From Rhodospirillales bacterium (GTDB taxonomy: Bacteria > Pseudomonadota > Alphaproteobacteria > ATCC43930 > CGMCC-115725): a DNA stretch of 24,219 bases. The notes under the pieces are model-generated. The model was not told the DNA's origin. It did not search any database and saw only the letters and a program-made list of their open reading frames with translations. The stretch lies in contig JAATGI010000154.1 in assembly GCA_015654725.1 (NCBI GenBank), positions 1 through 24,219 on the forward strand, written 5' to 3'. The translations under genes and the position numbers were made by a program. Each line of letters starts with the position of its first letter. Positions within the stretch are counted from its first letter, which is position 1. This document shows, piece by piece, positions 8,661-22,806 of this stretch.

Positions 8661-9725
8661 ATGACCGTTCATGCGACGCATAACATCGATCCGGCCCGGC
8701 GGGAATTTTACCGCCGCATCGGCGAGCGCAATCTGGCGCCGCTGTGGGAAGTGCTGCACAAGCTCGTCACCGCGACGCCGGAAACCGCGATCGTGCCGCA
8801 TCTGTGGCGCTATGCCGAGCTGAAGCCCCATCTCCTCGAAGCCTGCGAGCTCATCACCGCGAAGGAAGCGGAACGCCGCGTTCTTGTCCTTGAAAACCCG
8901 GCTTTGCCGGGCGAATCGCGCATCACCAAGAGCCTGTTCGGCGGCCTGCAGATCATTCTCCCGGGCGAGATCGCGGCGCCGCATCGGCACACGCAAGCGG
9001 CGCTGCGCTTCGTCCTGGAAGGCGAGGGTGCCTACACCTCGGTCGATGGCGAGCGCACCTTCATGCGCCCGGGCGATTTCGTCATCACCCCGTCCTGGAC
9101 CTGGCACGATCACGGCAATGTCGGCACCGGGCCGATGGTGTGGCTCGACGGGCTCGACATGCACATGATTAAACTCTTCGAGGCGAGCTTCCGCGAAGGC
9201 TCGGGCTCCGATGCGGCCGGCCGGGTGTCCCGGCCCGAAGGCGATTCCGAGGCGCGCTACGGCGCCAATCTGCTGCCGGTCGAGGATTCCTACCGCCGCC
9301 CGACCTCGCCCGTGTTCAATTACCGCTACGACCGCACGCGCGAGGCGCTGGAACAAATGCGCCGCGAGAATGAATGGAGCCCGTGGCACGGGCTCAAGCT
9401 CAAATACGCCAATCCGAAGACCGGCGATTACGCCATCCCGACCATCGCCACCTTTATCCAGCTTCTGCCCAAGGGCTTCAAGACCGCGCCCTATCGCTCG
9501 ACGGCGAGCACCGTGTTCGTGTGCGTCGAAGGCGGCGGCAAGACCGTCGTCGGCGAAGGCGAGGCCACGCGGACATTTGCCTGGGGACCGCTCGATATCG
9601 TGGTGGTGCCGAGCTGGGAAATTTGCCGCCACGAGGCGGCCGAAGACGCCGTCCTGTTCAGCTATTCCGACCAGGGCGTCCACGAAAAGCTCGGCTTCTG
9701 GCGCGAGGAGAAATTCGACGCTTGA
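8661..9725 (+). CDS. gtdA: Gentisate 1,2-dioxygenase (bicupin; salicylate/aminosalicylate dioxygenase family)
   Basis: LAPLWEVL, AERRVLVLENP, HRHTQAALRFV, PGDFVITPSWTWHDH, WLDGLD, YRST and DIVVVPSW motifs; SD AAGGAG. Confidence 0.92.
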   Translation: MTVHATHNIDPARREFYRRIGERNLAPLWEVLHKLVTATPETAIVPHLWRYAELKPHLLEACELITAKEAERRVLVLENPALPGESRITKSLFGGLQIILPGEIAAPHRHTQAALRFVLEGEGAYTSVDGERTFMRPGDFVITPSWTWHDHGNVGTGPMVWLDGLDMHMIKLFEASFREGSGSDAAGRVSRPEGDSEARYGANLLPVEDSYRRPTSPVFNYRYDRTREALEQMRRENEWSPWHGLKLKYANPKTGDYAIPTIATFIQLLPKGFKTAPYRSTASTVFVCVEGGGKTVVGEGEATRTFAWGPLDIVVVPSWEICRHEAAEDAVLFSYSDQGVHEKLGFWREEKFDA

Positions 9726-11758: not shown

Positions 11759-11789
11759 TTGACCGGCGGCGGTGCCGCCGGAATATAGT
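11759..11789 (+). promoter_or_regulatory. Putative sigma70 promoter with 19-bp spacer and palindrome (MerR-type geometry)
   Basis: TTGACC (11759-64), N19, TATAGT (11784-89); perfect IR CCGGCGGC-GGT-GCCGCCGG at 11763-11781. Confidence 0.45.
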
Positions 11790-11816
11790 GCGGCATCGCC
11801 TCGATCGGAGATGCCG

Positions 11817-12395
11817 ATGCTCACCTTGTATTTCGCGCCTGGGTCCAGTTCGATGGCGCCGCATATCGCGCTCCATGAAATCGGCGCGCCGTTCGAGGCC
11901 AAGTCGCTGTCATTCGCCAAGAAGGAACAGCGCGCGCTGGCTTATTTGGCGCTCAATCCCGAAGGCAAGGTGCCGACCCTGCTGATCGACGGCCGGCCGC
12001 TGACCGAGGTCGCCGCGATTCTGTTTTATCTGGCGAAGCGCTTTCCCGAGGCGGAACTGCTGCCGCCCGGCGATCTCGACGCCGAGGCGCGGGCGTTGTC
12101 CTGGATGTCGTTCATCGCCTCGACCATCCATTCCGCGCGCCATCAGGGCGCCGACCACGTTCGCGCGGTGTGGGCCGTCGCGGATGGCAGGCTCGGCGCG
12201 CACGACTGGGCGCTCGGCCGCTATTCGATCGCCGACATCCATCTCTTCCGCCTTTATTGGCGCTTCGCCAACGCGTTCCATCCCGCGCCCGACGCGTTCC
12301 CCAACCTGGCCGCGCATTACCACCGCATGATGGCGCGCCCGGCCGTGCGCAAGACCTGCGCGATCGAGGCCGCCATCGGCTACGAACTGCCCTAG
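11817..12395 (+). CDS. Glutathione S-transferase (beta-like, Ser in place of the catalytic Cys)
   Basis: LYFAPGSSSMAPHIAL, NPEGKVPTL, LTEVAAILFYL and SIADIHLF motifs; SD GGAG 6 nt before ATG 11817. Confidence 0.9.
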   Translation: MLTLYFAPGSSSMAPHIALHEIGAPFEAKSLSFAKKEQRALAYLALNPEGKVPTLLIDGRPLTEVAAILFYLAKRFPEAELLPPGDLDAEARALSWMSFIASTIHSARHQGADHVRAVWAVADGRLGAHDWALGRYSIADIHLFRLYWRFANAFHPAPDAFPNLAAHYHRMMARPAVRKTCAIEAAIGYELP

Positions 12396-12429: not shown

Positions 12430-12454
12430 GCCGCGCGTCGTCAGGGAGGTTCGG

Positions 12455-13255
12455 GTGAAAGCCAATCAGATGTTCGACATGGCGGGGCCGGCCCCCATCG
12501 TTACCGGGCGCGCCTCGGGCATCGGCCTCGCCATGGCCGAGGTGATCGCCGAGCATGGCGCCGCCGTCACCATCATGGATATGAACGAAGCCGCGCTCGC
12601 AACCGAGGTCGCGCGCATGACGGGTCTCGGCTGGAAGGTCGAGGGCGCGGTCGCGAATGTCACGCAATTCGACCGGCTCGAAGCGGCGATCGGCGATGTC
12701 GCCAAGAAGCATGGCCGGCTCGATGTCTGCTTCGCCAATGCCGGCATGGGCGGCGGCCCCGGCATGTTCACGCCCGAGGGCGGCATTGAGAACATGTCGC
12801 TTGAGAACTACAAAAATACCATCGCGGTCAACCAGAACGGCGCCTTCGCCACGGCGAAATTTGCCGCCCAGCATATGATCCCGCGCAAATACGGCCGCAT
12901 CATCGTGACCGCGTCGGTGGCCGGCCTGTTTGCCGAGGGCACGTCCTATGCCTACGGCATGTCGAAAGCGGCGATCGCGCACCTGGTCGAGCCGCTGGCG
13001 CGCCAGCTCGCGCCGCACAACATCCTGGTCAACGCCATCGCGCCCGGCCCGTTCATCACCAATATCGGCAACGGTTATCTCCGCAAGAATAACGAGGCGA
13101 TCGCGCGCTGGGCGCAGATGGTGCCGCTAAACCGCATGGCCGAGACCGAGGAGATGAAGGGGCTGGCGTTGCTGCTCGCCTCGGGAGCTTCGAGCTATAT
13201 CACCGGCGACGTCATCATGATCGATGGCGGCAGTTCACAAATGCGGCTGTTCTGA
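12455..13255 (+). CDS. Classical SDR oxidoreductase (paralog 1, likely NAD-preferring)
   Basis: GTG start after SD GGGAGG; TGRASGIG, NAG, S, YGMSK and VNAIAPG motifs; Asp at the end of beta2 (IMDMN). Confidence 0.9.
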   Translation: MKANQMFDMAGPAPIVTGRASGIGLAMAEVIAEHGAAVTIMDMNEAALATEVARMTGLGWKVEGAVANVTQFDRLEAAIGDVAKKHGRLDVCFANAGMGGGPGMFTPEGGIENMSLENYKNTIAVNQNGAFATAKFAAQHMIPRKYGRIIVTASVAGLFAEGTSYAYGMSKAAIAHLVEPLARQLAPHNILVNAIAPGPFITNIGNGYLRKNNEAIARWAQMVPLNRMAETEEMKGLALLLASGASSYITGDVIMIDGGSSQMRLF

Positions 13256-13266
13256 GGGAGGACGCG

Positions 13267-14079
13267 ATGAACGCGAAGGAAATGTTCGACCTCACCGGCC
13301 ATGTCGCGCTGATCACCGGCGCCGCAAACGGAATCGGCCTGGCACACGCCGAAATATTGGCGGAGCACGGCGCCAAGGTCATGCTGACCAGCCGCAACGC
13401 CGCGACGCTCGATCCGCAAGTGGCGCGGCTCAAGGCGGCGGGGTTCGCCGTCGAGGGCATGGTCGCCGATGTCACCGACTATGACGCGCTCAAGGCGGCG
13501 TTCGACGCGACGGTGGCGAAATGGGGCAAGCTCGATATCGCCGTCGCCAACGCGGGCATCGGCGACGGCCACGGCATCGTCTCGCCCGCGGGCATGATCG
13601 AGACCCTGCCGTTGCAGAAATATCTCGACACGATCGCGATCAACCAGCACGGCGTGGTCAGCACGGTGCAGTTGGCGGCGCAGCGCATGATCCCGAATAA
13701 ATACGGGCGCATCATCATCATCTCGTCGATCGCGGGCCTCGCCTCGGAGCTGACGTCCTACGCCTATTCCATGTCGAAAGCCGCGATCCAGCATTTGGGC
13801 CGCATGGCGGCGCGGCAACTGACGCCCCATAACATTATCGTCAACGTGATGGCACCGGGGCCGACCTATACCCATATCGGCGATGGCGCGCTCGACAAGT
13901 TCCCCGAGGGTGCGAAACGCTTCGCCAGTATCATCCCGCGCGGCACGATCGGCCAAGTTGACGAGCTGAAGGGCCTGGCGCTGCTGCTCGCCTCGCCCGC
14001 CGCGAGCTTCATCAACGGCACGGTCATTCCCGTCGATGGCGGCGCCTTGACCATGCGCGTTCCCCGCCCCCAACAGTGA
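13267..14079 (+). CDS. Classical SDR oxidoreductase (paralog 2, likely NADP-preferring)
   Basis: TGAANGIG, NAG and YSMSK motifs; TSRN at the end of beta2; SD GGAGG. Confidence 0.92.
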   Translation: MNAKEMFDLTGHVALITGAANGIGLAHAEILAEHGAKVMLTSRNAATLDPQVARLKAAGFAVEGMVADVTDYDALKAAFDATVAKWGKLDIAVANAGIGDGHGIVSPAGMIETLPLQKYLDTIAINQHGVVSTVQLAAQRMIPNKYGRIIIISSIAGLASELTSYAYSMSKAAIQHLGRMAARQLTPHNIIVNVMAPGPTYTHIGDGALDKFPEGAKRFASIIPRGTIGQVDELKGLALLLASPAASFINGTVIPVDGGALTMRVPRPQQ

Positions 14080-14086
14080 GACAACA

Positions 14087-15118
14087 ATGGAACTCGAATT
14101 CGGCGCCGTCGATCACATCGACCAGCAGAACCGGCCGATTCACGAAACCTTCGACAGCCGGCTGAAGCTGATTCAGGCCTATGACAAGGCGGGCTTCTAC
14201 GCCTTCCATGTCACCGAGCATCATTTCACGCCCTTGGGCCTGTCGCCGTCGCCCAACGTATTCCTCGCGGCGGCGTCGCGGATCACCGAGCGGCTGCGTT
14301 TCGCGACGCTGGTCTATATCATGACGGCCTATCACCCGCTGCGGCTCGCGGAAGAGATCTGCATGATGGATCATCTGACGCATGGCCGCTTCGAGATCGG
14401 ATTGGGGCGCGGGGTCTCGCCGTTCGAGATCGGCTATTTCAACATCGATCATCTGCAGTCGCGCGCGATTTTCCGCGAGGCCTGGGACGTCGTTCTGGCC
14501 GCGCTGACCAAGGACAATGTCAGCTACGAAGGCAAATATTTCCAATGCCGCGAGGTGCCGATCGTGCTGAAGCCGTATCAGCTTCCGCACCCGCCGCTGT
14601 GGCAGGCGCCGGGCAACGCCGAGGGCGTCGCCAACGGCGCGCGCCTCAACATGAATCTGGGCTTCAACCGTCCCGCCAACCTCACCAAGCCGATGACCGA
14701 CCTCTACAAGAAGCTCTGGACCGAGACGCATGGCGCGAGCGGCAAGAAAATGCCGAAGCTCTCGGTCGGCGCGCATCTGTATGTCGATCACAACGAACAG
14801 CGCGCCAAGGAACGCGCCGAATTCGGCTACGAGGGCTGGTACAGGAGCTTCGCCCATCCGTGGCGCAAATTCGTCCCCATGGTGCCGGCGCAGGATCAGG
14901 GCGGCGCCTTCGGACGCCAACGTCTCGTCATCGCCGGCACGCCCGCGCAGGTGCGCGAGCAGATCGAGAAGCTGGTCGCCGATTGCGGCGCCAACTATTT
15001 TCTCGCCCGCTTCGCCTATGGCGATCTGCCCTATGAGGAAAGCGCCGCCTCGCTCGGCCTGTTCGTCGAGGAGGTGATGCCGCATTTCCGCGCGGCACCG
15101 TCGCGGCAGGCGGTCTGA
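14087..15118 (+). CDS. LLM-class (luciferase-like) flavin-dependent oxidoreductase
   Basis: TEHHF, SPSPNVFLAA, HPLRLAEEICMMDHL..GRFEIGLGRG and GTP..V motifs. Confidence 0.92.
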   Translation: MELEFGAVDHIDQQNRPIHETFDSRLKLIQAYDKAGFYAFHVTEHHFTPLGLSPSPNVFLAAASRITERLRFATLVYIMTAYHPLRLAEEICMMDHLTHGRFEIGLGRGVSPFEIGYFNIDHLQSRAIFREAWDVVLAALTKDNVSYEGKYFQCREVPIVLKPYQLPHPPLWQAPGNAEGVANGARLNMNLGFNRPANLTKPMTDLYKKLWTETHGASGKKMPKLSVGAHLYVDHNEQRAKERAEFGYEGWYRSFAHPWRKFVPMVPAQDQGGAFGRQRLVIAGTPAQVREQIEKLVADCGANYFLARFAYGDLPYEESAASLGLFVEEVMPHFRAAPSRQAV

Positions 15119-15142: not shown

Positions 15143-15745
15143 ATGATCGGCAATTGGCGGGCGCGCGGCGCGCAATTCCTGCTGCTGGTTTTTGTAGCGG
15201 TGGGATTGTCGGGCTGCGGCGTCAACAAAATCCCGACGCTCGACGAGCAGGTGAAGGCGACGTGGAGCGAGGTGCTGAACCAATACAAACGCCGCGCCGA
15301 TCTGGTGCCGAACCTGGTCGAGACCGTGAAGGGCTACGCGGCGCAGGAGAAAACCGTTCTGACCGACGTCACCGAGGCACGCGCCAAGGCGACCCAGATG
15401 CAATTGCCCGACGACATCCTCAGCAATCCCGACGCCTTCAAGCAATTTCAGGCCAATCAGGCCCAACTCGGCGGCGCGCTCGGCCGGCTCCTGGCGATCA
15501 GCGAAAATTATCCGGACCTGAAATCGAACCAGAATTTCCTGGCGCTGCAATCGCAATTGGAAGGCACCGAGAACCGCATCGCGGTGGCGCGGCGCGACTA
15601 TATTCTCGCGGTCCAGGCCTATAACACCGAGCTGCGCACCATTCCGGGCCGCTGGATCGCGGCGCTGCTTTATCCCGACGCCAAGGTGAAAGAGACCTTC
15701 ACCATCGCCGAGGAAGACCAGAAGACCCCGCAGGTTAAGTTTTGA
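15143..15745 (+). CDS. lemA: LemA family (lipo)protein
   Basis: LSGC lipobox-like; QYKRRADLVPNLVETVKGYA; ENYPDLKSNQNFLALQSQLEGTENRIAVARRDY. Confidence 0.95.
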   Translation: MIGNWRARGAQFLLLVFVAVGLSGCGVNKIPTLDEQVKATWSEVLNQYKRRADLVPNLVETVKGYAAQEKTVLTDVTEARAKATQMQLPDDILSNPDAFKQFQANQAQLGGALGRLLAISENYPDLKSNQNFLALQSQLEGTENRIAVARRDYILAVQAYNTELRTIPGRWIAALLYPDAKVKETFTIAEEDQKTPQVKF

Positions 15746-16575
15746 ACGCGACCGGCGATTTGGATATTCACCACCCCGGCGAAAGCCGGGGTCCATTTCT
15801 CCGATCGATACCGGCTTTCGCCGGTATGGTGAAATTCCTTGGAATCGTGCTGCTCGCGCTGGCGCCGCTGAGTCACGCGCTCGCCGCCGACCTGACGTTT
15901 CCCCAGCTCACCGGCCGCGTTATGGACGAGGCCGGCTTGTTGTCGCCGGCCGCGCAAAACCAAATCACCGGCTGGCTTGCACAATTCGAGCAAACGACCA
16001 AGCGCCAGGTCGTGGTCGCGACGGTCACGAGTCTGCAAGGCGACACGATCGAGGATTACGGCTATCGGCTCGGCCGTGCCTGGGGCATCGGCGAGAAGGA
16101 CAAGAACACCGGCGCCATCCTTCTGGTGGCGCCCAATGAGCACAAGGTTCGGATCGAGGTCGGCTATGGGCTCGAGGGCGAGCTGACCGACGCCATCGGC
16201 GCCACCATCATCAACCAAGACATTCTGCCCGCGTTCCGCCAGGGCAATTATGAACAGGGCATCGTCGCCGGCACCGCGGCGATGTTGCAGGTGCTCGGCT
16301 GGAACGGCGCCAGTGCCGCGATACCCGTTGCACCGCAAGCGCGCGGGAGCAGTTTGGCCTTCATCCCGTGGCTGATTTTCCTGGTCTTTTTCATCTTCGT
16401 CTTCGCGCGGCTGTCGCGGCACCATCCGTTCCTCGCGGCGGGGCTCGGCATGTATGCGCTGGGCGGCGGCTTCGGCGGGCGGGGCGGGTTCGGCGGTGGT
16501 GGCGGCGGCTTCGGCGGCGGCTTCAGCGGGGGCGGCGGTTCGTTCGGGGGCGGCGGCGCCTCGGGAGGCTGGTGA
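15742..16575 (+). CDS. TPM-domain (YgcG-like) protein with Gly-rich tail; start at TTG 15742 or ATG 15826
   Basis: LTGRVMDEAGLL, WGIGEKDKNTGAILLVA, VRIEVGYGLEGELTD and GGSFGGGGASGGW motifs. Confidence 0.92.
   Translation: MNATGDLDIHHPGESRGPFLRSIPAFAGMVKFLGIVLLALAPLSHALAADLTFPQLTGRVMDEAGLLSPAAQNQITGWLAQFEQTTKRQVVVATVTSLQGDTIEDYGYRLGRAWGIGEKDKNTGAILLVAPNEHKVRIEVGYGLEGELTDAIGATIINQDILPAFRQGNYEQGIVAGTAAMLQVLGWNGASAAIPVAPQARGSSLAFIPWLIFLVFFIFVFARLSRHHPFLAAGLGMYALGGGFGGRGGFGGGGGGFGGGFSGGGGSFGGGGASGGW
15767..15833. repeat. REP doublet, copy 2, in frame in the 5' end of the TPM gene
   Basis: TTCACCACCCCGGC-GAAA-GCCGGGGTCCA ... GATACCGGC-TTTC-GCCGGTATGGTGAA. Confidence 0.85.
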
Positions 16576-17198
16576 GCGCCATGATGGGCTTGAACGACGC
16601 CGATCGCGCGCGGGTCGAGGCCGCGGTCAAAGCGGCGGAAACGCGTACCGCCGCGCAATTCGCGCTCGTGGTCGCCCACGCCAGCGACGACTACGCGCTT
16701 TATCCGATCCTGTGGTCGGCGCTGATCGCGCTCATTGTCGGCGATCTGGCGGCGCTCATCTGGTCCGATCTGGCGGCGCTATGGGTCGTCGTTATCGAAG
16801 CGGTGCTGTTTATCGCCGCCGATTTGATTCTTCATCTAAAGCCGCTGCGCTTTCGCTGCGTGCCGGCGCGGGTCAGGAAAAGCCATGCGGCGCGGCTGGC
16901 GCGGCTCGAATTCGCCGCCCTGGTGCATGACCGCACGCCGGGCGATGTCGGGCTTCTCCTGTTCGTATCCGAGGCCGAACGCCATGTCGAAATCCTGGTC
17001 GATCGCGGCATCGCGGCGAAAATTCCCGAGACGGCATGGCAACAGATCGTCGCCGATTTCGTGGCGGCGATTAAGGCCGGCCGCGTCGCCGAAGCGCTGA
17101 TCGGCGCGGTCGATGCCGGCGCGGCGCTGTTGGCGACGCACTTCCCGCCCCAGCCCGGCGCGCCCAACACGATCCCGGATCGGGTGACGGAAATCTGA
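16572..17198 (+). CDS. Second TPM-domain membrane protein (lemA-associated)
   Basis: GTGA overlap with SD GGAGG; AVKAAETRT, ASDDY, GLLLFVSEAERHVEILVDRGI and FPP...N.IPD motifs. Confidence 0.88.
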   Translation: MSAMMGLNDADRARVEAAVKAAETRTAAQFALVVAHASDDYALYPILWSALIALIVGDLAALIWSDLAALWVVVIEAVLFIAADLILHLKPLRFRCVPARVRKSHAARLARLEFAALVHDRTPGDVGLLLFVSEAERHVEILVDRGIAAKIPETAWQQIVADFVAAIKAGRVAEALIGAVDAGAALLATHFPPQPGAPNTIPDRVTEI

Positions 17199-17217
17199 TC
17201 CCGCTCAAAAAGCAAAA

Positions 17218-17385
17218 TTTGAACCGCCAAGGCACCGAGGCGCCACGTTCATTCTGAATTTATCGAATCGCCACCCCGACGAAAGTCGGGGTCCACATTT
17301 GCCGTGGATGCCGGCTTCCGCCGGTATGGTTCGGCGGGGAGGTTGTGTGCGGAGTCTTGGCGCCTTGGCGTCTTGGCGGTTCAAA
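17218..17385. repeat. Long inverted repeat with 8-nt-period CCAAG units enclosing a REP
   Basis: Arms 17218-17245 and 17358-17385 match at 25 of 28 nt; CTTGG at 17356, 17364 and 17372. Confidence 0.8.
17269..17331. repeat. REP doublet, copy 3 (nested)
   Basis: CGCCACCCCGAC-GAAA-GTCGGGGTCCA ... TGGATGCCGGC-TTCC-GCCGGTATGG. Confidence 0.85.
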
Positions 17386-17404
17386 CTTTCTTCTATTTCG
17401 GCGG

Positions 17405-17444
17405 CGGACAAAAAAGGGCGCCCGGAGGCGCCCCCCAAAGTCGC
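17405..17444 (-). terminator. Intrinsic terminator of higBA; direct-repeat copy A
   Basis: Minus strand GGGCGCC-TCCG-GGCGCCC-T6; near-identical to 18105-18143. Confidence 0.8.
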
Positions 17445-17446
17445 CC

Positions 17447-17752
17447 TCAAGCGGCCTTCGGGGCCACTGCCACGAACCGTTTTCGGACCTTGATCTTATT
17501 TGCGCGTCCGCGCGCCGCCGACAAATCGTGCTGCAACTGCATCCGCAGCCAATGATCGGCGGTGCTCCATCCGACTTTTTCGAGGCGAATGGCCATGTCA
17601 ATCGACAGCCCGCTATGTCCATTCAACAGGTCGGACAGCGCCTTGCGCGTCACGCCGAGAGCCTGGGCCGCTTCCGTCACCGTCAATCCCAAGGGCTTGA
17701 GACACAATTCGCGAATCACCTCGCCGGGATGAGCCGGGTCACGCAGTTCCAT
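17447..17752 (-). CDS. higA: HigA-family antitoxin (XRE HTH)
   Basis: [40 protein letters not shown] and WLRMQ..HDL motifs. Confidence 0.93.
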
Positions 17753-17765
17753 TGCTGTCCATCCT

Positions 17766-18047
17766 TTAGTGATAGTCCACCAAATCGAGATTGGTTACGT
17801 CTTCGCCATCGAACTCGAACACCAGCCGCCAATTACCCGATACCGCGACCGCCCATTGGCCTTTCCGGCCGCCTTTGAGCGGGTGGAGCCGCGCGCCGGG
17901 CAGCCGATTCATGTGCTCCGGACGCGTGGCGGCGTTGAGGGCCGTGAGCAGGACGCGGAGCCTCGTCGCCTGCCGCGTATCGATTCCCCTCGCATCCCCA
18001 TCTCGAAAAAACCGGCTCAAGCCCTTGTGGCGAATCCGCCTTATCAT
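17766..18047 (-). CDS. higB: HigB-family (RelE/ParE-like) toxin
   Basis: [30 protein letters not shown] and C-terminal DYH; toxin lies upstream of antitoxin. Confidence 0.93.
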
Positions 18048-18055
18048 TGGCGATA

Positions 18056-18084
18056 AGCGTAAGGTTACAGGTGACAGGTGTCAA
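18056..18084 (-). promoter_or_regulatory. higBA promoter with overlapping palindromic operators
   Basis: TTGACA (18084-79), N17, TACGCT (18061-56); IRs TGACA-GG-TGTCA (18072-83) and GTAA-GG-TTAC (18059-68). Confidence 0.7.
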
Positions 18085-18104
18085 ACGTATCGGGCTTGCG
18101 GATA

Positions 18105-18143
18105 CGGATAAAAAAAGGGCGCCCGAAGGCGCCCCCAAGTCGC
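18105..18143 (-). terminator. Intrinsic terminator of the Rid operon; direct-repeat copy B
   Basis: Minus strand GGGCGCC-TTCG-GGCGCCC-T7. Confidence 0.82.
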
Positions 18144-18179: not shown

Positions 18180-18563
18180 TCAAGCGTCCTTGGCGACCGC
18201 GAGCACTTCGAGCTGCAGCAGCACGCCGCGCAGCGGCATCACCAGCGAATGCCGCGCCGGCCGATGATGCTCGTCGGGATAAATCTCGAGCCAGTGTTTG
18301 TTGATGACGGTGCGGTGCGCGTCATCGACCAGAAAGACCGTGAGCTTCACCACGTCGCCCCAATCCATCCCCGCTTCCTTGAGGATGTTGCCCATGTTCT
18401 GGAAGGCGAATTTGGCTTGGCTCTCGGCGTCGGCCGGCGCCTTGCCGGTCGCGGGATCGATGCCGCCGACGCCGCCCGTCGCCAGGATCGGGCCGACGCG
18501 CGCGCCCAAGGGGATCGGCGCGTTATGCGCGACACCGGGTAGATGAATGCTTTTCTGACGCAT
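18180..18563 (-). CDS. Rid (YjgF/YER057c/UK114) family protein
   Basis: QAKFAFQNM..IL..AG....DVVKLTVFL, RPARH (catalytic-type Arg) and LQLEVLAV motifs; SD GGGAGG. Confidence 0.9.
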   Translation of the reverse strand: MRQKSIHLPGVAHNAPIPLGARVGPILATGGVGGIDPATGKAPADAESQAKFAFQNMGNILKEAGMDWGDVVKLTVFLVDDAHRTVINKHWLEIYPDEHHRPARHSLVMPLRGVLLQLEVLAVAKDA

Positions 18564-18584
18564 GAATTGCCTCCCTCGATTTAT

Positions 18585-19580
18585 TCAGGACCACCGCACG
18601 AAACCCAAGCCCGTGCCGGTCAGCGCCGGCGTGCGATAGCCCGGGATGTAATCGGCCCAGGAAATTTTCATCGTCGTGCCCGCGGCCGCGCCCGCGACCA
18701 CGAGCCAATTGCGAATCTCCGAGGTGCCGGCTTGCAACCGCTTCGGCGAGAGCTTCGCCAGCCAATCGAGATCGTTGCGCTTCAGGGCGTCGATCACGCC
18801 ATGATCCAGCTTCTCGTCGACGACGAAATGCGACAGGCCGCCCGAGCCCAGGAAGCCGACGCGGATATTCTCGGGAAAGCTCTCGATCAGCTTGCCGATT
18901 TCCTTGCCGAGTTCGATGCAGCGCGCCGGCGTCGGCTGGTTCGGGTCGTAATAGGTGTTGACGAAAATCGGCACGATCGGCAGCGGATAGCCCTTCAGAT
19001 AGCGGCGATGGATAAAGGAATAGGCGTGGCCCTCGGATTGGCCCTCGGTCAGTTTGTTGAAGGCGGAGATGTCGAAATTGCGTTCGCTCAGCCCCTTGAT
19101 GAGATGGAGCGCCAAGCCGGCATGGACCGGATAATCGACATCCTGCCCGTCCTCGCGGCGGCGCTGCTGGGCGCGGTGATACCAATCGTCGGGCGGCAGG
19201 TCGGTGCGCGCCGCCCGGTTGCGGATGGTGTCGCCGTAATAGATCGCGATCGCGGGATTGTGGTGCGGCGGGAATAATTCATGCTGGTCGTCGCCGACGA
19301 TGATGAGCGCGTCGAGATTGGCGCTCCTGATTTCGTCGCGCTCGCGATCCATCGCCGCCTGGGTGCGGCGAAAGCGCTCGGCGATGGCGCCCGGCGTGAT
19401 CAGCGGCGCCGCGCGGTCGGCGAACTTCGCCACCAGATCGTCATAGGAAATCAAATCGCCGTTGAAATCGTGATGTGTCATGCGCTTGTCGGAAGGCGGG
19501 AATTTTGAAATCCAGTCTTCCTCCTGGCACACCAGCATCACGCTGTGCGAGGAACCGAAAGCGGCGGCGAATTGTGCCAT
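18585..19580 (-). CDS. Class III (LigB-fold) extradiol ring-cleavage dioxygenase, DesZ-like
   Basis: SH, IIVGDDQHELF, EGHA, PIFVNTYY.PNQPT..RC, SGGLSHFVVDE, QAGTSEIRNW and DYIP.YR motifs. Recalled similarity to Sphingobium DesZ is unverified. Confidence 0.85.
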   Translation of the reverse strand: MAQFAAAFGSSHSVMLVCQEEDWISKFPPSDKRMTHHDFNGDLISYDDLVAKFADRAAPLITPGAIAERFRRTQAAMDRERDEIRSANLDALIIVGDDQHELFPPHHNPAIAIYYGDTIRNRAARTDLPPDDWYHRAQQRRREDGQDVDYPVHAGLALHLIKGLSERNFDISAFNKLTEGQSEGHAYSFIHRRYLKGYPLPIVPIFVNTYYDPNQPTPARCIELGKEIGKLIESFPENIRVGFLGSGGLSHFVVDEKLDHGVIDALKRNDLDWLAKLSPKRLQAGTSEIRNWLVVAGAAAGTTMKISWADYIPGYRTPALTGTGLGFVRWS

Positions 19581-19609
19581 CGCGATTCTCCCTGTCTCCT
19601 AATCCTTAT

Positions 19610-19688
19610 TCGTCACCCCGGCGAAAGCCGGGGTCCAGGGCGAGCGACGAGCGGTTGCTCTGGGTCCCCGCTTTCGCGGGGACGACGA
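19610..19688. repeat. REP doublet, copy 4
   Basis: CGTCACCCCGGC-GAAA-GCCGGGGTCCAG ... CTGGGTCCCCGC-TTTC-GCGGGGACGACG; spacer resembles that of copy 1. Confidence 0.88.
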
Positions 19689-19717
19689 CAAATATGGATC
19701 CTTGCTGAAGGACATGC

Positions 19718-20848
19718 CTAGTCACCCCATACCTCCCGAGCAACGTCGACGATTAGGTTCAATTTCGCGATCTCTTCCTCGACCGTGATCTTGTTGCCTT
19801 CGAGGGTCGAGGAAAAACCGCATTGCGGGCTTAACGCCAATTGATCGAGCGGCACGAATTTCGCCGCCTCGTCGATCCGGCGCTTCAACGCGTCCTTGGT
19901 TTCGAGCTTGCCCTTCTTGGTCGTGACCAGGCCGAGCACCACGACCTTGCCCTTGGGCACGAAGCGAAGTGGCTCGAAGCCGCCGGCGCGCGCCGAATCA
20001 TATTCGAGGAAATAACCGGTGATGTCGATCTCGTTGAACAGGGTTTCCGCCACCGGCTCGTAGCCGCCCTCGGCGACCCAGGCGCTGTTGGCGTTGCCGC
20101 GGCAGAGATGCATGCACACGGTCATGCCCGCGGGCTTGCCGGCGATCGCGGCGTTGATGAGCTTGGCGTAAGTATGCGGCAGCTTGTCCGGGTCTTCGCC
20201 GATGGCGCGCACCTGCTCGCGCAATTTCGGATCGCACAGATAAGCGAGATTGGTCTCGTCGATTTGAAGATAGGTGCAGCCATTGCGGCCGAGATCGGCG
20301 ATCTCCTCGGAATAGACCCGGGCGAGATCGGCCAGGAATTCCTCCATGTCGGGATAGGCGGTCTCGTCCACCGCCTGGCGCCCGCCGCGAAAATGCATCA
20401 GCGACGGCGACGGGATGGTGAGTTTCGGCACCGCATGCGCGACGGATTTCAGGAACTTGAAGGCGTCGATGAAAATCGGATGCGGCCGCGACAGCTTGCC
20501 GGCGACGAACAGGCCGGGCGGTACCATCTCGGTCTCGCCCTCCTCGGTGTGAAACCGCATCTTCACCTTGCTCGGCACGATCTTGACGTTGGCGAAGCTG
20601 GTGAGGAAATCGCGCTGCCAGCCGGCGCGCGAATATTCGCCATCGGTCACGGATTTGAACCCGAGCTCCTCTTGAAGCTTCACCACCTGGCGAATCGCCT
20701 CATGCTCGACGCCGTGAAAGGCCTCTTCCGAGATTTCCTTCTTGTCGCGCGCGCGATGCGCCTCGATCAGCGCCTGGGGCTTGAGCAAGCTGCCAACCTG
20801 GTCGGCGCGAAACGGCGGCGTATGGCGGGCGAGCGATGGACCGGGCAT
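19718..20848 (-). CDS. Single-barrel MetE-like Zn-thiol alkyltransferase (YxjG/cobalamin-independent methionine synthase II-like)
   Basis: RADQVGSLL, TDGEY.R, QIDE; Zn-ligand motifs HLCRGN, EYD and SPQCGF. Lacks the N-terminal MetE barrel. Confidence 0.88.
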   Translation of the reverse strand: MPGPSLARHTPPFRADQVGSLLKPQALIEAHRARDKKEISEEAFHGVEHEAIRQVVKLQEELGFKSVTDGEYSRAGWQRDFLTSFANVKIVPSKVKMRFHTEEGETEMVPPGLFVAGKLSRPHPIFIDAFKFLKSVAHAVPKLTIPSPSLMHFRGGRQAVDETAYPDMEEFLADLARVYSEEIADLGRNGCTYLQIDETNLAYLCDPKLREQVRAIGEDPDKLPHTYAKLINAAIAGKPAGMTVCMHLCRGNANSAWVAEGGYEPVAETLFNEIDITGYFLEYDSARAGGFEPLRFVPKGKVVVLGLVTTKKGKLETKDALKRRIDEAAKFVPLDQLALSPQCGFSSTLEGNKITVEEEIAKLNLIVDVAREVWGD

Positions 20849-20866
20849 CTAGACCTTCCTCATTAT

Positions 20867-20901
20867 GTTCGTGCCATCAAACGGCGCGCGATGGTACGAA
20901 C
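20867..20901. promoter_or_regulatory. Inverted repeat in the divergent MetE-like/CoA-ligase promoter
   Basis: GTTCGTGCCATC-N11-GATGGTACGAAC (11 of 12 match). Confidence 0.4.
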
Positions 20902-20964
20902 TGTTATATCGTTTAGCTCCATGGTTCCGGCGCGAAAACCAACAGGAAAAAAGGGAAGGGAGAG

Positions 20965-22806
20965 ATGCGGATGGCCGGTTCGTATAGGCGAAATGCCGTC
21001 GCGCGGCTGATGCGGCCGGGCTCGATCGCCATTGTCGGCGTCTCGCCCGAGCCGGGCCAGCCCGGCGGCAACATTATCGGCAATCTGGACAAGGTCGGTT
21101 ACGCCGGCGCGCTCCATCTCGTCAGCCGCAACCGCACCGAGGTGTTCGGCCGGCCTTGCGTGCGGACCATCGACGATTTGCCCGACGGCGTCGATGTCGT
21201 GGTGCTGTGCATTCCCGAGCGCGCCGTGGTCGAGGCGGTCGAGGCCTGCGCGCGTAAACACATGGGCAATGTGCTGATCTTCGCCGCCGGCTTCGCCGAA
21301 GTGGGCGGCGCCGGCATTGTCGCGCAGGCCCGCATTCGCGAGGTCACCGACGCGGCCGAAATGGGCATCGTCGGGCCGAATTGCCTCGGCGTCACCAATT
21401 CGCTGCCGGGCGGCGTGCCGCTGACCTTCGGCATGGCGGAGGGGCGCAGGGTCTCGGGCGACCGGCCGACCCTCGGCATCGTCGCGCAAAGCGGCGCGCT
21501 CGCCGGCATTTTCCGCAACGTCATCCAGGCGCGCGGCCTCGATGTCTCTTACAGCATTTCCTCGGGCAACGAAGCCGGACTCATTTGCGAGGATTATCTC
21601 GATTTCATGCTCGAGGATCCGGCGGTGCGGGCGATCGCGATCTATGCCGAGCAGTTGCGCGATCCGCCGCGCTTTCTCGAATTGGCGGGCAAAGCGCGGG
21701 CCTTGGCCAAGCCCATCGTCATGCTCCATCCGGGGGAGAGCGCGATCTCGCGCGAATCCGCGATCAGCCACACCTATTCCGTCACCCGCAACTACCGCGC
21801 CATGCGCGCCTTGACCCGGCGCGCCGGCGTGGTGCTGGTCGAGAAGGTCGAGGAACTCCTCGATGTCGCCGAGCTGCTGATGTATTTCCCGGCGCCGCCA
21901 ACGATGGGGCCTGCGGTGATGGCGGATTCGGGCGCCTTCAAGGGCCTCGCCCTCGATTACGCCGAGCGCATCGGCATCGATCTGCCGAAATTCTCGCCCG
22001 ACATTTACCAAAAGCTGGTGCCGGTGATGCCGGTCTTTGCGCCGCCCTCGAACCCGCTCGACATGACGGCGCAGGCGGTGAAAGAGCCGGAGATGTACGA
22101 CAAGTCGCTGCCGCTCCTGCTCGCCGATCCGCGCATCGGCAGCTTGTTGCTGGCGCCGATCCTGGGCACCACCGGCTTCGGCCTCGCCAAGGGCCAGCGC
22201 GTCCTGAACGCCGTCAAGGGCGCGACCAAGCCGGTGATCATGACCAATCTCGCCTTCGATGGCGGCACCGCGCCCGAATTGATCGTGGAATGCCGCGCGC
22301 GCGGCGTGCCGTTTTTCGCCTCGCCCGAGCGGGCACTGCGCGCCCTTGCTTATCTCACCCATTACGCGCGGGCCTTGGCGCGGCCGGCGGCAGCGCAAAC
22401 CGACGTGCCGAAGGATTATTTCGCGAGCCTGAGCGCGCCGGATCGGACCGGGGGTGGCGAGGTGCTTGCTTTGGTGGTCGGCGCGACCCGCGATCCCGAA
22501 TGGGGGCCGATCCTCGAAATCGGTTTCGGCGGCGAGTGGCAAAAGGTATTGCCCGATACGGTCATCCTGCCGCCCGATCTCGACGCGGAAAATATCGCCG
22601 GCGAACTGCGGGCGCTTCCTGGTGCGTCGCTATTCGTGGGCCGCGACCTCGCCGCCGCTTGCGCGATCATCGCTCGCCTCGGCGCGATCCTGCGCGCCGA
22701 TTCCGAAATCGGCTCGATCCGGCTCGATCCTCTATTGGTTGATGCGAAGGGTGCGGCCGTTACGAGCACGAAGGTTGTTACCCTCGAACAAATGAGCCGG
22801 CCTTGA
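20965..22806 (+). CDS. ADP-forming acyl-CoA synthetase-like protein with shortened ATP-grasp domain
   Basis: LMRPGSIAIVGVS, GFAE, GPNCLG, QSGAL, GNEAGL, SHT, NPLDM and RDPEWGP motifs; no HKSD.GGV segment. Confidence 0.85.
   Translation: MRMAGSYRRNAVARLMRPGSIAIVGVSPEPGQPGGNIIGNLDKVGYAGALHLVSRNRTEVFGRPCVRTIDDLPDGVDVVVLCIPERAVVEAVEACARKHMGNVLIFAAGFAEVGGAGIVAQARIREVTDAAEMGIVGPNCLGVTNSLPGGVPLTFGMAEGRRVSGDRPTLGIVAQSGALAGIFRNVIQARGLDVSYSISSGNEAGLICEDYLDFMLEDPAVRAIAIYAEQLRDPPRFLELAGKARALAKPIVMLHPGESAISRESAISHTYSVTRNYRAMRALTRRAGVVLVEKVEELLDVAELLMYFPAPPTMGPAVMADSGAFKGLALDYAERIGIDLPKFSPDIYQKLVPVMPVFAPPSNPLDMTAQAVKEPEMYDKSLPLLLADPRIGSLLLAPILGTTGFGLAKGQRVLNAVKGATKPVIMTNLAFDGGTAPELIVECRARGVPFFASPERALRALAYLTHYARALARPAAAQTDVPKDYFASLSAPDRTGGGEVLALVVGATRDPEWGPILEIGFGGEWQKVLPDTVILPPDLDAENIAGELRALPGASLFVGRDLAAACAIIARLGAILRADSEIGSIRLDPLLVDAKGAAVTSTKVVTLEQMSRP

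Follow-up and report, generated by a model that had tools for sequence, protein, structure and literature searches.

A predicted ring-cleaving dioxygenase gene beside a single-barrel MetE homologue in a wood-decay alphaproteobacterium, and its possible link to methionine formation

Organisation of the locus

The stretch of DNA analysed here, called the window below, comprises 24,219 nucleotides of a Rhodospirillales genome recovered from a wood-decay metagenome (assembly GCA_015654725.1, contig JAATGI010000154.1; contig C236 of genome bin G000, a bin of 2.68 Mb that is 80% complete), and a run of the source DNA spans the stretch over its full length. It carries a short group of genes in which a predicted ring-cleaving dioxygenase of the LigB family adjoins a homologue of the methionine synthase MetE, a pairing that recurs in other Proteobacteria and that may connect the degradation of lignin-derived aromatic acids with the formation of methionine. 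Four open reading frames make up this group. Three of them lie on the minus strand and encode, in the direction of reading, a single-barrel "core" MetE homologue of the PRK06520/YxjG type (19718..20848, 376 amino acids; PF01717), a putative zinc-dependent homocysteine S-methyltransferase; a predicted class III extradiol dioxygenase of a single-subunit, ~330-residue subfamily of the LigB family (18585..19580, 331 amino acids; PF02900); and a Rid-family protein (18180..18563, 127 amino acids; PF01042, 58.5 bits), a putative imine or enamine deaminase or tautomerase. The fourth, on the plus strand, encodes a protein resembling the nucleoside diphosphate (NDP)-forming acyl-coenzyme A (CoA) synthetases (20965..22806, 613 amino acids), with CoA_binding_2, Succ_CoA_lig and Ligase_CoA_2 domains and a partial ATP-grasp_5 domain.

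The unit formed by the three minus-strand genes is closed by an intrinsic terminator (18115..18136, minus strand) that begins 44 nt past the stop codon of the Rid gene and consists of a 9-bp stem with seven G-C pairs, a 4-nt loop and a T run. The LigB-like and Rid genes are separated by 21 nt. On the other side, 116 bp of divergent control region (20849..20964) separate the MetE-like gene from the CoA synthetase gene and hold a 12-nt inverted repeat at 20867-20901, beside a AAACGATAT(G/A)ACA box. The first-pass annotation of this DNA had described three co-oriented genes ending in a strong terminator and divergent from an acyl-CoA ligase, with an inverted repeat in the shared promoter, and in this respect it was accurate, the reading frames, Pfam families, hairpin and repeat all being found. 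The arms of the repeat, GTTCGTGCCATC (20867-20878) and GATGGTACGAAC (20890-20901), are 92% complementary. The box is kept upstream of the orthologous MetE-like genes. In the alignment the palindrome is degenerate or partial in two orthologous upstream regions and lost in three, and no exact copy of it occurs in the other 162 loci collected for this work (cited below by L numbers). Since the palindrome is poorly conserved, a regulatory role for it is unproven.

The gap of 137 nt between the MetE-like and LigB-like genes is occupied by a double hairpin (19604..19690) resembling the repetitive extragenic palindromic (REP) elements, with two perfect 8-bp GC stems, GTCCCCGC..GCGGGGAC and ACCCCGGC..GCCGGGGT. 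This element is present in many copies: in the source metagenome its DNA depth reaches 81x, against about 6x in the flanks, with many loose contig ends, and 39 similar hairpins are found across the genome. The orthologous loci carry just 18-33 nt at the same place. Within the putative operon, the REP-like element is an insertion that parts the MetE-like gene from the LigB-like one.

Properties of the encoded proteins

The LigB-like protein matches PF02900 with 49.8 bits (cut-off 26.3) over residues 149-302 only, and a family profile built from 71 representatives matches the beta subunit of LigB at 4e-26 and DesB at 1e-20. Its AlphaFold2 model, with a predicted local distance difference test score of 96.5, has LigB (1bou_B) and DesB as best Foldseek matches, with template modelling (TM) scores of 0.63-0.66, so that the LigB fold is found by profile and by structure. 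Relative to LigB, the protein carries an insertion of ~65 residues (roughly residues 20-85) that is mostly helical, and there is no separate LigA-like subunit gene at the locus. In the active site, H251 corresponds to the catalytic base His195 of LigB and is present in all 71 representatives, while H185, the second active-site histidine, corresponds to LigB His127 and is present in 69 of them. H12 and E288 correspond to the iron ligands His12 and Glu242 and are both conserved. Two of the three ligands of the 2-His-1-carboxylate iron site (His12, His61 and Glu242 in LigB) are kept in this way; at the third, position 99 in the window protein, 51 of the 71 representatives have glutamine and 14 have histidine, and the two residues alternate even among close relatives. 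The protein has the LigB fold and is very probably still a ring-cleaving enzyme, with one of the defining iron ligands replaced.

Searches at E<=1e-30 returned 207 members of this subfamily, counted as representatives of clusters at 50% identity. In a phylum-wide sample, one of 400 other genomes has a member at 1e-40; within the family of the window itself (Stellaceae/Allostellaceae) members are common, being found in 117 of 193 genomes. The name DesZ is carried by homologues solely as an automatic label of the Joint Genome Institute, and orthology to DesZ itself is unconfirmed. No NCBIfam equivalog scores above its cut-off for the LigB-like protein, and the Protein Atlas gives generic LigB/DODA labels only. 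In one related genome (G572:C13:68759-69750) the orthologous LigB-like gene is in two pieces separated by an internal TGA, which may reflect a pseudogene or an assembly error.

The MetE-like protein belongs to the NF005085/PRK06520 subfamily, with 440.2 bits against a cut-off of 313, and its nearest structure is the YxjG-like entry 1ypx of the PDB (7e-93). The zinc residues H247, C249 and C343 align to those of MesD (3RPD), and the remaining ligand, E282, was assigned from the translated sequence. The homocysteine residues S20, E71 and D197 align to those of MesD (3RPD) and of Thermotoga maritima MetE (1XPG); the roles of the zinc and homocysteine residues are taken from the work on the core methionine synthases, where the latter correspond to S433, E484 and D599 in Escherichia coli and to S22, E73 and D188 in 3RPD (PMC7857596). 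The folate-binding N-terminal barrel is absent from this protein of 376 residues, with PF08267 reaching 18 bits, below its cut-off of 27. Identity with MesD was rejected, since the protein scores 41.6 bits to MesD 3RPD and the threshold of Price et al. is 390 bits (ACIAD3523). As to MesX, the companion of MesD, there is no DUF1852 gene in the window and no PF08908 match in the 80%-complete genome, the control genomes being likewise without a match.

The genus to which the window belongs shows an expansion of such proteins that is specific to it. The window genome contains 21 matches to PF01717 and each of eight congeners 20-51, compared with 0-6 in neighbouring genera; nine of the copies in the window genome are closely related to the MetE-like gene of the window. 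A two-barrel MetE was not found in the nine genomes of the genus, and MetH is represented in the genus by only two fragments with internal TGA stops (G486:C161 and G601:C6); for the window genome, which is incomplete, these absences and that of MesX are provisional. With an intact homocysteine site, no two-barrel MetE and a broken MetH, it is most likely that the MetE-like protein of the window still makes methionine, as far as its sequence and genomic setting can tell.

The paralogues have neighbours of their own. The one closest to the window gene (G000:C35:5-1953, L156) is directly followed by a gene of the GcvT family, and in two better-assembled relatives (L163:6179-9699 and L162:6189-9344; three genomes in all) the arrangement is a unit of glutathione S-transferase, MetE-like and GcvT-family genes. 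The GcvT-family protein of this unit has 466 residues, which is the size and family of LigM and DesA. An extracytoplasmic function-type sigma factor with DUF6596 is encoded near the unit, and a cytochrome P450 near that of L162. Other paralogues of the window genome adjoin luciferase-like genes (C21 and C391, one of them with genes for short-chain dehydrogenases/reductases, SDRs), an Amidohydro_2 gene (C156) or genes for binding proteins (C116). This pattern of neighbours fits enzymes that take methyl groups from catabolism, and is circumstantial.

The two remaining proteins can be assigned in general terms. The Rid protein lies below the RidA cut-off of TIGR00004 (50 against 106 bits) and hence is not an archetypal RidA; it keeps the arginine of the P-x-R motif (Arg105 of RidA), which aligns with P-T-R of TdcF/YjgF and P-A-R of HI0719. 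The acyl-CoA synthetase-like protein reaches 297 bits with TIGR02717, under the cut-off, as it is with all NCBIfam equivalogs. Its CoA_binding_2 and Succ_CoA_lig domains are complete, and ATP-grasp_5 is matched at profile positions 111-219 only, the C-terminal half. The Burkholderiales counterpart spans positions 11-219 of that profile, and the orthologues in the genus have 576-621 residues.

Recurrence of the pairing and its gene neighbourhoods

Adjacency of a MetE-like and a LigB-like gene was found in six supported subclades distributed over Alpha-, Beta- and Gammaproteobacteria: the window with L070 and L073; L076; L077 with L080; L110; L098 with L107; and L085 with L089 and L091. Three architectures occur, with the MetE-like gene upstream of the dioxygenase gene (Alphaproteobacteria), divergent from it (L076) or downstream (Beta- and Gammaproteobacteria). 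The paired MetE-like proteins are 85, 85, 72, 62, 62, 62, 54, 48, 48, 47 and 45% identical to that of the window. In a gammaproteobacterial bin (L107, 4032-11758) two different pairs of LigB-type and MetE-like genes stand on either side of a large-subunit gene of a molybdenum hydroxylase and adjoin two TctC binding-protein genes. When the MetE-like proteins were placed in a tree with 14 other paralogues of the window genome, the dioxygenase-adjacent copies grouped apart, the alphaproteobacterial group having a support of 99/98. Only supported clades of this tree were used, given that L085 has a long branch and that for L080 a reading frame of 1062 residues had been wrongly chosen.

The association was also seen from the side of the MetE-like family. 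Six homologues of 67-73% identity were chosen at random on long contigs. Two of the six stand in LigB-type clusters, two others (L153 and L155, described below) are found among genes of methionine metabolism, and the last two were uninformative. In the first cluster (L150) the homologue is accompanied by a member of the same LigB-like family together with a luciferase-like gene, an IclR gene and an aldolase gene; in the second (L152) it lies beside LigA/LigB, a LigC-like gene, an Amidohydro_2 gene, a VanA-type Rieske gene and an alpha/beta-hydrolase gene. The recurrence of this neighbourhood across lineages and gene orders argues for a role of the MetE-like protein that is tied to catabolism. 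Taken together, the family of the MetE-like protein behaves as a methionine-forming one, part of which is wired to aromatic ring cleavage.

The neighbourhoods of the dioxygenase family were tallied by tblastn, with representatives checked against Pfam, in a sample of 81 loci (80 named loci and the window). The search patterns of this sample included GDDQ, which biases it towards the Gln-type subfamily, and related genomes are not independent, so that locus counts overstate the number of independent events; for this reason we lean on the six subclades and three architectures. A CoA-transferase III gene directly adjoins the dioxygenase gene in 33 of the 81 loci and an RraA-type aldolase gene in 30, while a thiolase-like gene with DUF35 is found within 3 kb in 31. 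The Rid gene is directly adjacent in 12-13 loci, and a MetE-like gene lies within 400 nt in 12. An NDP-forming CoA synthetase is encoded somewhere in 29 of the loci. It is divergent from the unit only within the genus; elsewhere CoA-transferase III takes that place, and the NDP-type enzyme is encoded several kb away. One or the other of these two CoA enzymes is present in 41 of the 81 loci, which points to the handling of either a precursor or a dicarboxylate product in thioester form.

In the dioxygenase tree two groups are distinguished, a clade of Burkholderiales and Halomonadaceae and a set of clades that includes the window. In the former (L084-L142, for example L100, L103 and L092) the LigB-like gene sits in an operon of about 12 genes, between CoA-transferase III and two RraA-like genes. 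The first part of this operon runs NDP-CoA synthetase, two acyl-CoA dehydrogenases, TctC, thiolase-like, DUF35 and CoA-transferase III, and the second LigB-like, two RraA-like, enoyl-CoA hydratase and thioesterase; it appears to encode an uncharacterised CoA-dependent pathway. In the latter set, the clusters of Methylocella sp. and other Beijerinckiaceae (L085, L089 and L091) consist of genes for a cupin, an FAD-dependent aromatic hydroxylase, the MetE-like protein, the LigB-like protein and an SDR, followed by Amidohydro_2, a HpcH/HpaI aldolase, an NMT1-like binding protein and a second Amidohydro_2. Judged by its predicted products, this cluster has the make-up of a protocatechuate-4,5 or gallate-type pathway, in which LigI and LigJ belong to Amidohydro_2 and LigK/GalC act as the aldolases (PMC12314914). 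It is the strongest evidence that the dioxygenase family opens aromatic rings. Amidohydro_2 and aldolase genes accompany family members in L085, L089 and L091, in L075-L077, L080, L110 and L112, and in the RraA-bearing clade.

Within the genus, the orthologous loci (82-86% identity) always have the Rid gene following the dioxygenase gene, and usually the NDP-type CoA ligase in divergent position. Copies of the MetE-like gene occur in the window and in L042/L070, L044/L073 and L009/L045, and L009 carries in addition a Methyltransf_3 O-methyltransferase gene ahead of the MetE-like gene. The unit is real yet modular, with the LigB-like and Rid genes as a local core and the MetE-like gene as an add-on.

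Further along the window, two SDR genes and a luciferase-like monooxygenase gene (12443..15118, plus strand) form a probable distant part of the module, ~3 kb away. The genes for LemA, a TPM-domain protein and a toxin-antitoxin system (15143-18143) split them from the Rid gene. On contig L008 the luciferase-like gene and the two SDR genes (67-86% identical) abut the Rid gene convergently, and what lies between them in the window looks like an insertion of ~3 kb into a once-contiguous module. A luciferase-like gene also adjoins the LigB-like gene in a clade of 53-59% identity, as it does in L150. The SDR and luciferase-like genes probably belong to the same module; of the loci compared within the genus, only 2 of ~7 have them next to the unit. 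No NCBIfam equivalog scores above its cut-off for the SDRs, the luciferase-like protein, the CoA-transferase III or the O-methyltransferase. Upstream of the SDR and luciferase-like genes lie those for a cupin of 354 residues (8661-9725; Cupin_2, gentisate-dioxygenase-like in size) and a glutathione S-transferase (11772-12395), which also hint at aromatic catabolism on this contig.

A proposed function, its alternatives and comparison with known systems

We tentatively propose that this small operon opens a methoxylated acid of the catechol or gallate type, derived from lignin, and that the methyl group is passed to homocysteine to give methionine, an explanation that we regard as quite possible though still short of probable. 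In this scheme the dioxygenase would cut the ring next to the carbon that bears the methoxy group, as DesZ, LigAB and MgaAB do with 3-O-methylgallate, and through this cut the aryl methyl ether, itself inert, would become a methyl ester of the type of 4-carboxy-2-hydroxy-6-methoxy-6-oxohexa-2,4-dienoate (CHMOD). The zinc-activated thiolate of homocysteine on the MetE-like enzyme could then take the methyl group from the ester; as a leaving group, a phenolate is much poorer than a carboxylate. The MetE-like enzyme would in this way replace the CHMOD methylesterases DesC and MgaC, which release methanol; in the clusters that carry the MetE-like gene, no esterase gene was seen next to that of the dioxygenase. 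Two other routes for the donor can be considered, namely a direct attack on the aryl methyl ether while the ring is still closed, and 5-methyltetrahydrofolate (5-methyl-THF) provided by a LigM-type demethylase encoded elsewhere. The unit found at C35 and the MetF-containing operon of L153, described below, suggest the last of these. The Rid protein might act on the ring-fission product when this is present as an imine, enamine or enol, and the divergent CoA enzyme might activate the precursor or the dicarboxylate product.

Compared with the first-pass annotation, which saw in the three genes and the CoA ligase one module for the ring cleavage of an amino- or methoxy-substituted aromatic acid and put the MetE-like enzyme in catabolism rather than in methionine synthesis, this proposal keeps a good part and changes the rest. 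The conservation of the neighbourhood was borne out by the MetE-like adjacency in 12 of 81 loci, in three gene orders and six subclades, but not as one fixed unit, since the MetE-like gene is absent from some loci of the genus and the ligase is divergent only there. Ring cleavage gained from the presence of the family in genuine ring-fission clusters, while the amino option draws on the Rid gene only. As for the MetE-like enzyme, its recurrent dioxygenase neighbour speaks for catabolism, but to set this against methionine synthesis is a false choice, because the homocysteine site is intact, homologues of ~70% identity stand in methionine-type contexts and neither a two-barrel MetE nor an intact MetH was found. 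The annotation also knew of no characterised pathway with this combination of genes. We agree: the parts come from known families, and no paper describing their combination was found in the literature searched.

Several observations weigh against the proposal. The residue at the place of the iron ligand His61 is Gln99 in the window protein, where the N59-D-H61 of LigB reads D97-D98-Q99. To our knowledge, there is no enzymatic precedent in the MetE-like family for the attack of a thiolate on a carboxyl methyl ester. The Amidohydro_2 and aldolase genes of a lower pathway were not found among the reading frames scanned in the window (7.9-24.2 kb), so that the window lacks the complete meta-cleavage set of dioxygenase, Amidohydro_2 and aldolase. 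Two to three of the genus loci have no MetE-like gene (L008, L043/L071 and L072, drawn from two compared sets that overlap), and therefore the dioxygenase does not need it. A homologue with 70% identity to the MetE-like protein heads an operon (L153, 7001-13134) that continues with genes for a 508-residue protein, MetK, AhcY and MetF, and another with 69% identity lies near asd/hom (L155), contexts in keeping with ordinary methionine synthesis from a folate donor. The Rid and CoA enzymes are without a defined role in the methyl-transfer scheme. Finally, transcripts of the unit were not found in three metatranscriptomes of the same study, which yielded only scraps of 30-75 nt, matching the REP-like repeat and conserved motifs of MetE. 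As an observation apart, the unannotated 508-residue protein of L153 could be a partner of a core methionine synthase.

The alternative that survives best is that the MetE-like protein is an ordinary methionine synthase, using 5-methyl-THF or another general donor, and that its link to aromatic compounds is indirect, the dioxygenase and the Rid protein acting independently of it on a catechol or gallate. The link would then consist in the regeneration of THF after a LigM/DesA-type demethylase encoded elsewhere, or in the supply of methionine and S-adenosylmethionine for an O-methyltransferase. Such an arrangement would account for the zinc and homocysteine residues being all intact, for the homologues with MetK, AhcY and MetF and near asd/hom, for the GcvT/LigM-like gene that directly trails the closest paralogue and for the O-methyltransferase gene that precedes the MetE-like gene in L009. 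In addition, the lack of a two-barrel MetE and the reduction of MetH to two stop-interrupted fragments mean that some paralogue must make methionine. On the other hand, a GcvT-family gene is absent from the window and from the Methylocella-type clusters, the protein has no folate-binding barrel, and those core synthases that have been characterised work without methyl-THF (PMC7857596). The adjacency to a dioxygenase in six subclades and three gene orders is also hard to explain by housekeeping. We consider this main alternative, with the indirect links that it invokes, unlikely. Should it nevertheless be true, bacteria without a two-barrel MetE, and with MetH only in broken form, would tie methionine synthesis to aromatic catabolism.

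The proposal of a methyl transfer to homocysteine can also be taken further, in a direction that we hold to be doubtful. The LigB-type dioxygenase may be the O2-dependent partner whose product serves as methyl donor to core methionine synthases that need neither folate nor B12 and that would form a fifth, hitherto undescribed family, of the PRK06520/YxjG type, with the methyl group of the activated ester passing directly to zinc-bound homocysteine; the 20-51 paralogues of each genome would then be a methyl-harvesting set with LigB-like, LigM-like, luciferase-like and Amidohydro_2 partners. The removal of methoxy groups is a bottleneck in the degradation of lignin. The enzymes known for it are of the Rieske, P450 and tetrahydrofolate-dependent types, and the methyl group leaves as formaldehyde or methyl-folate, or else as methanol once the ring has been cleaved. 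Were a zinc enzyme to hand the methyl group directly on to homocysteine, both the chemistry of demethylation and the source of methionine would be new, and this would bear on the question of the methyl donor of aerobic "core" methionine synthases that MesD and MesX have raised. If the fifth-family reading holds, the methoxy carbon of lignin would enter methionine without passing through formaldehyde, methanol or folate.

A pathway for amino-aromatic compounds (aminophenol or aminohydroxybenzoate), with the LigB-like protein as a 2-aminophenol 1,6-dioxygenase, the Rid protein as a 2-aminomuconate deaminase and the MetE-like protein as a passenger, is improbable. In all the orthologous loci of the genus, as in 12-13 of the 81 loci overall, the Rid gene comes directly after that of the dioxygenase, which would be in line with it, as would the conservation of the catalytic arginine for imine hydrolysis, and aminophenol dioxygenases are indeed among the Foldseek matches. 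These are however more distant, with a TM score of 0.57 and 13% identity against 0.66 and 20% for LigB/DesB, and the Rid gene is missing from most loci of the family, complete meta-cleavage clusters included. A gene for an aminomuconate-semialdehyde dehydrogenase or other genes of the amn type were not seen nearby, and the recurrent MetE-like neighbour is left unexplained.

It is very improbable that the MetE-like protein is a zinc thiol-alkyl transferase similar to epoxyalkane:coenzyme M (CoM) transferase, which would add a thiol to an epoxide or quinone formed by the luciferase-like enzyme and leave the oxidation of the enantiomeric adducts to the two SDRs. The parallel is the epoxide pathway of Xanthobacter, in which XecA acts together with two stereospecific SDRs. 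The luciferase-like monooxygenase and the two tandem SDRs of the wider module recall it, and two other paralogues of the genome adjoin luciferase-like genes, one of them with SDRs. The intact Ser/Glu/Asp homocysteine triad nonetheless argues against CoM or a thiol that is not an amino acid, the SDR and luciferase-like genes stand beside the unit in so few loci of the genus (2 of ~7), and a reductase/carboxylase partner was not seen.

That the LigB-like protein is no dioxygenase but, having lost the His61 ligand, a non-oxygenase or binding subunit acting on a CoA thioester is most improbable, since the prevalence of glutamine at that position (51/71), the CoA-transferase III or NDP-type CoA synthetase in 41/81 loci and the place of the Burkholderiales gene inside a beta-oxidation-like operon, all of which would suit it, are set against the invariance or near invariance of H12, E288, H251 and H185, a swap of Gln and His among close relatives as expected of an exchangeable ligand, and aldolase and Amidohydro_2 neighbours that suit a ring-fission product.

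Among known systems, one of the closest is the cleavage of 3-O-methylgallate by DesZ, LigAB or MgaAB to the methyl ester CHMOD, from which the methylesterases DesC and MgaC release methanol (PMC12314914). In the syringate branch of Sphingobium SYK-6, Novosphingobium and Pseudomonas NGC7 the CHMOD methylesterase (DesC/DesD or MgaC) is followed by LigI-LigJ-LigK or GalD-GalB-GalC (PMC12314914, PMC3962378). The window shares with this system a LigB-family dioxygenase, the Amidohydro_2 and aldolase genes of related loci and, as proposed here and in keeping with the wood-decay source, lignin-derived substrates. It differs in that its enzyme is a single subunit of ~330 residues, with the ~65-residue insertion and glutamine at the His61 position, in that the MetE-like gene adjoins that of the dioxygenase while the window has no alpha/beta-hydrolase methylesterase, and in the absence of lower-pathway genes from the window.

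More distantly, the combination of AmnAB or CnbC with a Rid-type 2-aminomuconate deaminase resembles the window by the pairing of a LigB-fold dioxygenase with a Rid-family gene; the match in structure and sequence is however weaker than with LigB/DesB, the window enzyme is single-subunit, and the window has no amn-type genes nearby. The epoxyalkane:CoM transferases XecA and EtnE, likewise more distant, are single-barrel zinc enzymes of the MetE family that work in catabolism. This type is common to them and the window protein, which, set beside them by description, keeps the homocysteine Ser/Glu/Asp triad and has no CoM pathway in sight.

In Sphingobium SYK-6, the ligM-metF-ligH genes provide a THF-dependent aryl O-demethylase whose methyl-THF is recycled by an oxidising methylenetetrahydrofolate reductase and not by a methionine synthase (PMC11868366, PMC6888825). 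The handling of methyl groups from lignin methoxy groups, as proposed here, would be common to both systems, and the closest paralogue in the genus is coupled to a GcvT/LigM-like gene, whereas the window locus has no gene of the GcvT family. The last comparison is with MesD/MesX, an oxygen-dependent and folate-independent core methionine synthase whose methyl donor is unknown (Price, Deutschbauer and Arkin 2021, PMC7857596). The window protein is of another type, PRK06520/YxjG, and its partner is a LigB-type dioxygenase. Both systems nevertheless have a single-barrel protein that keeps the zinc and homocysteine residues, an aerobic host and an O2-dependent partner encoded alongside.

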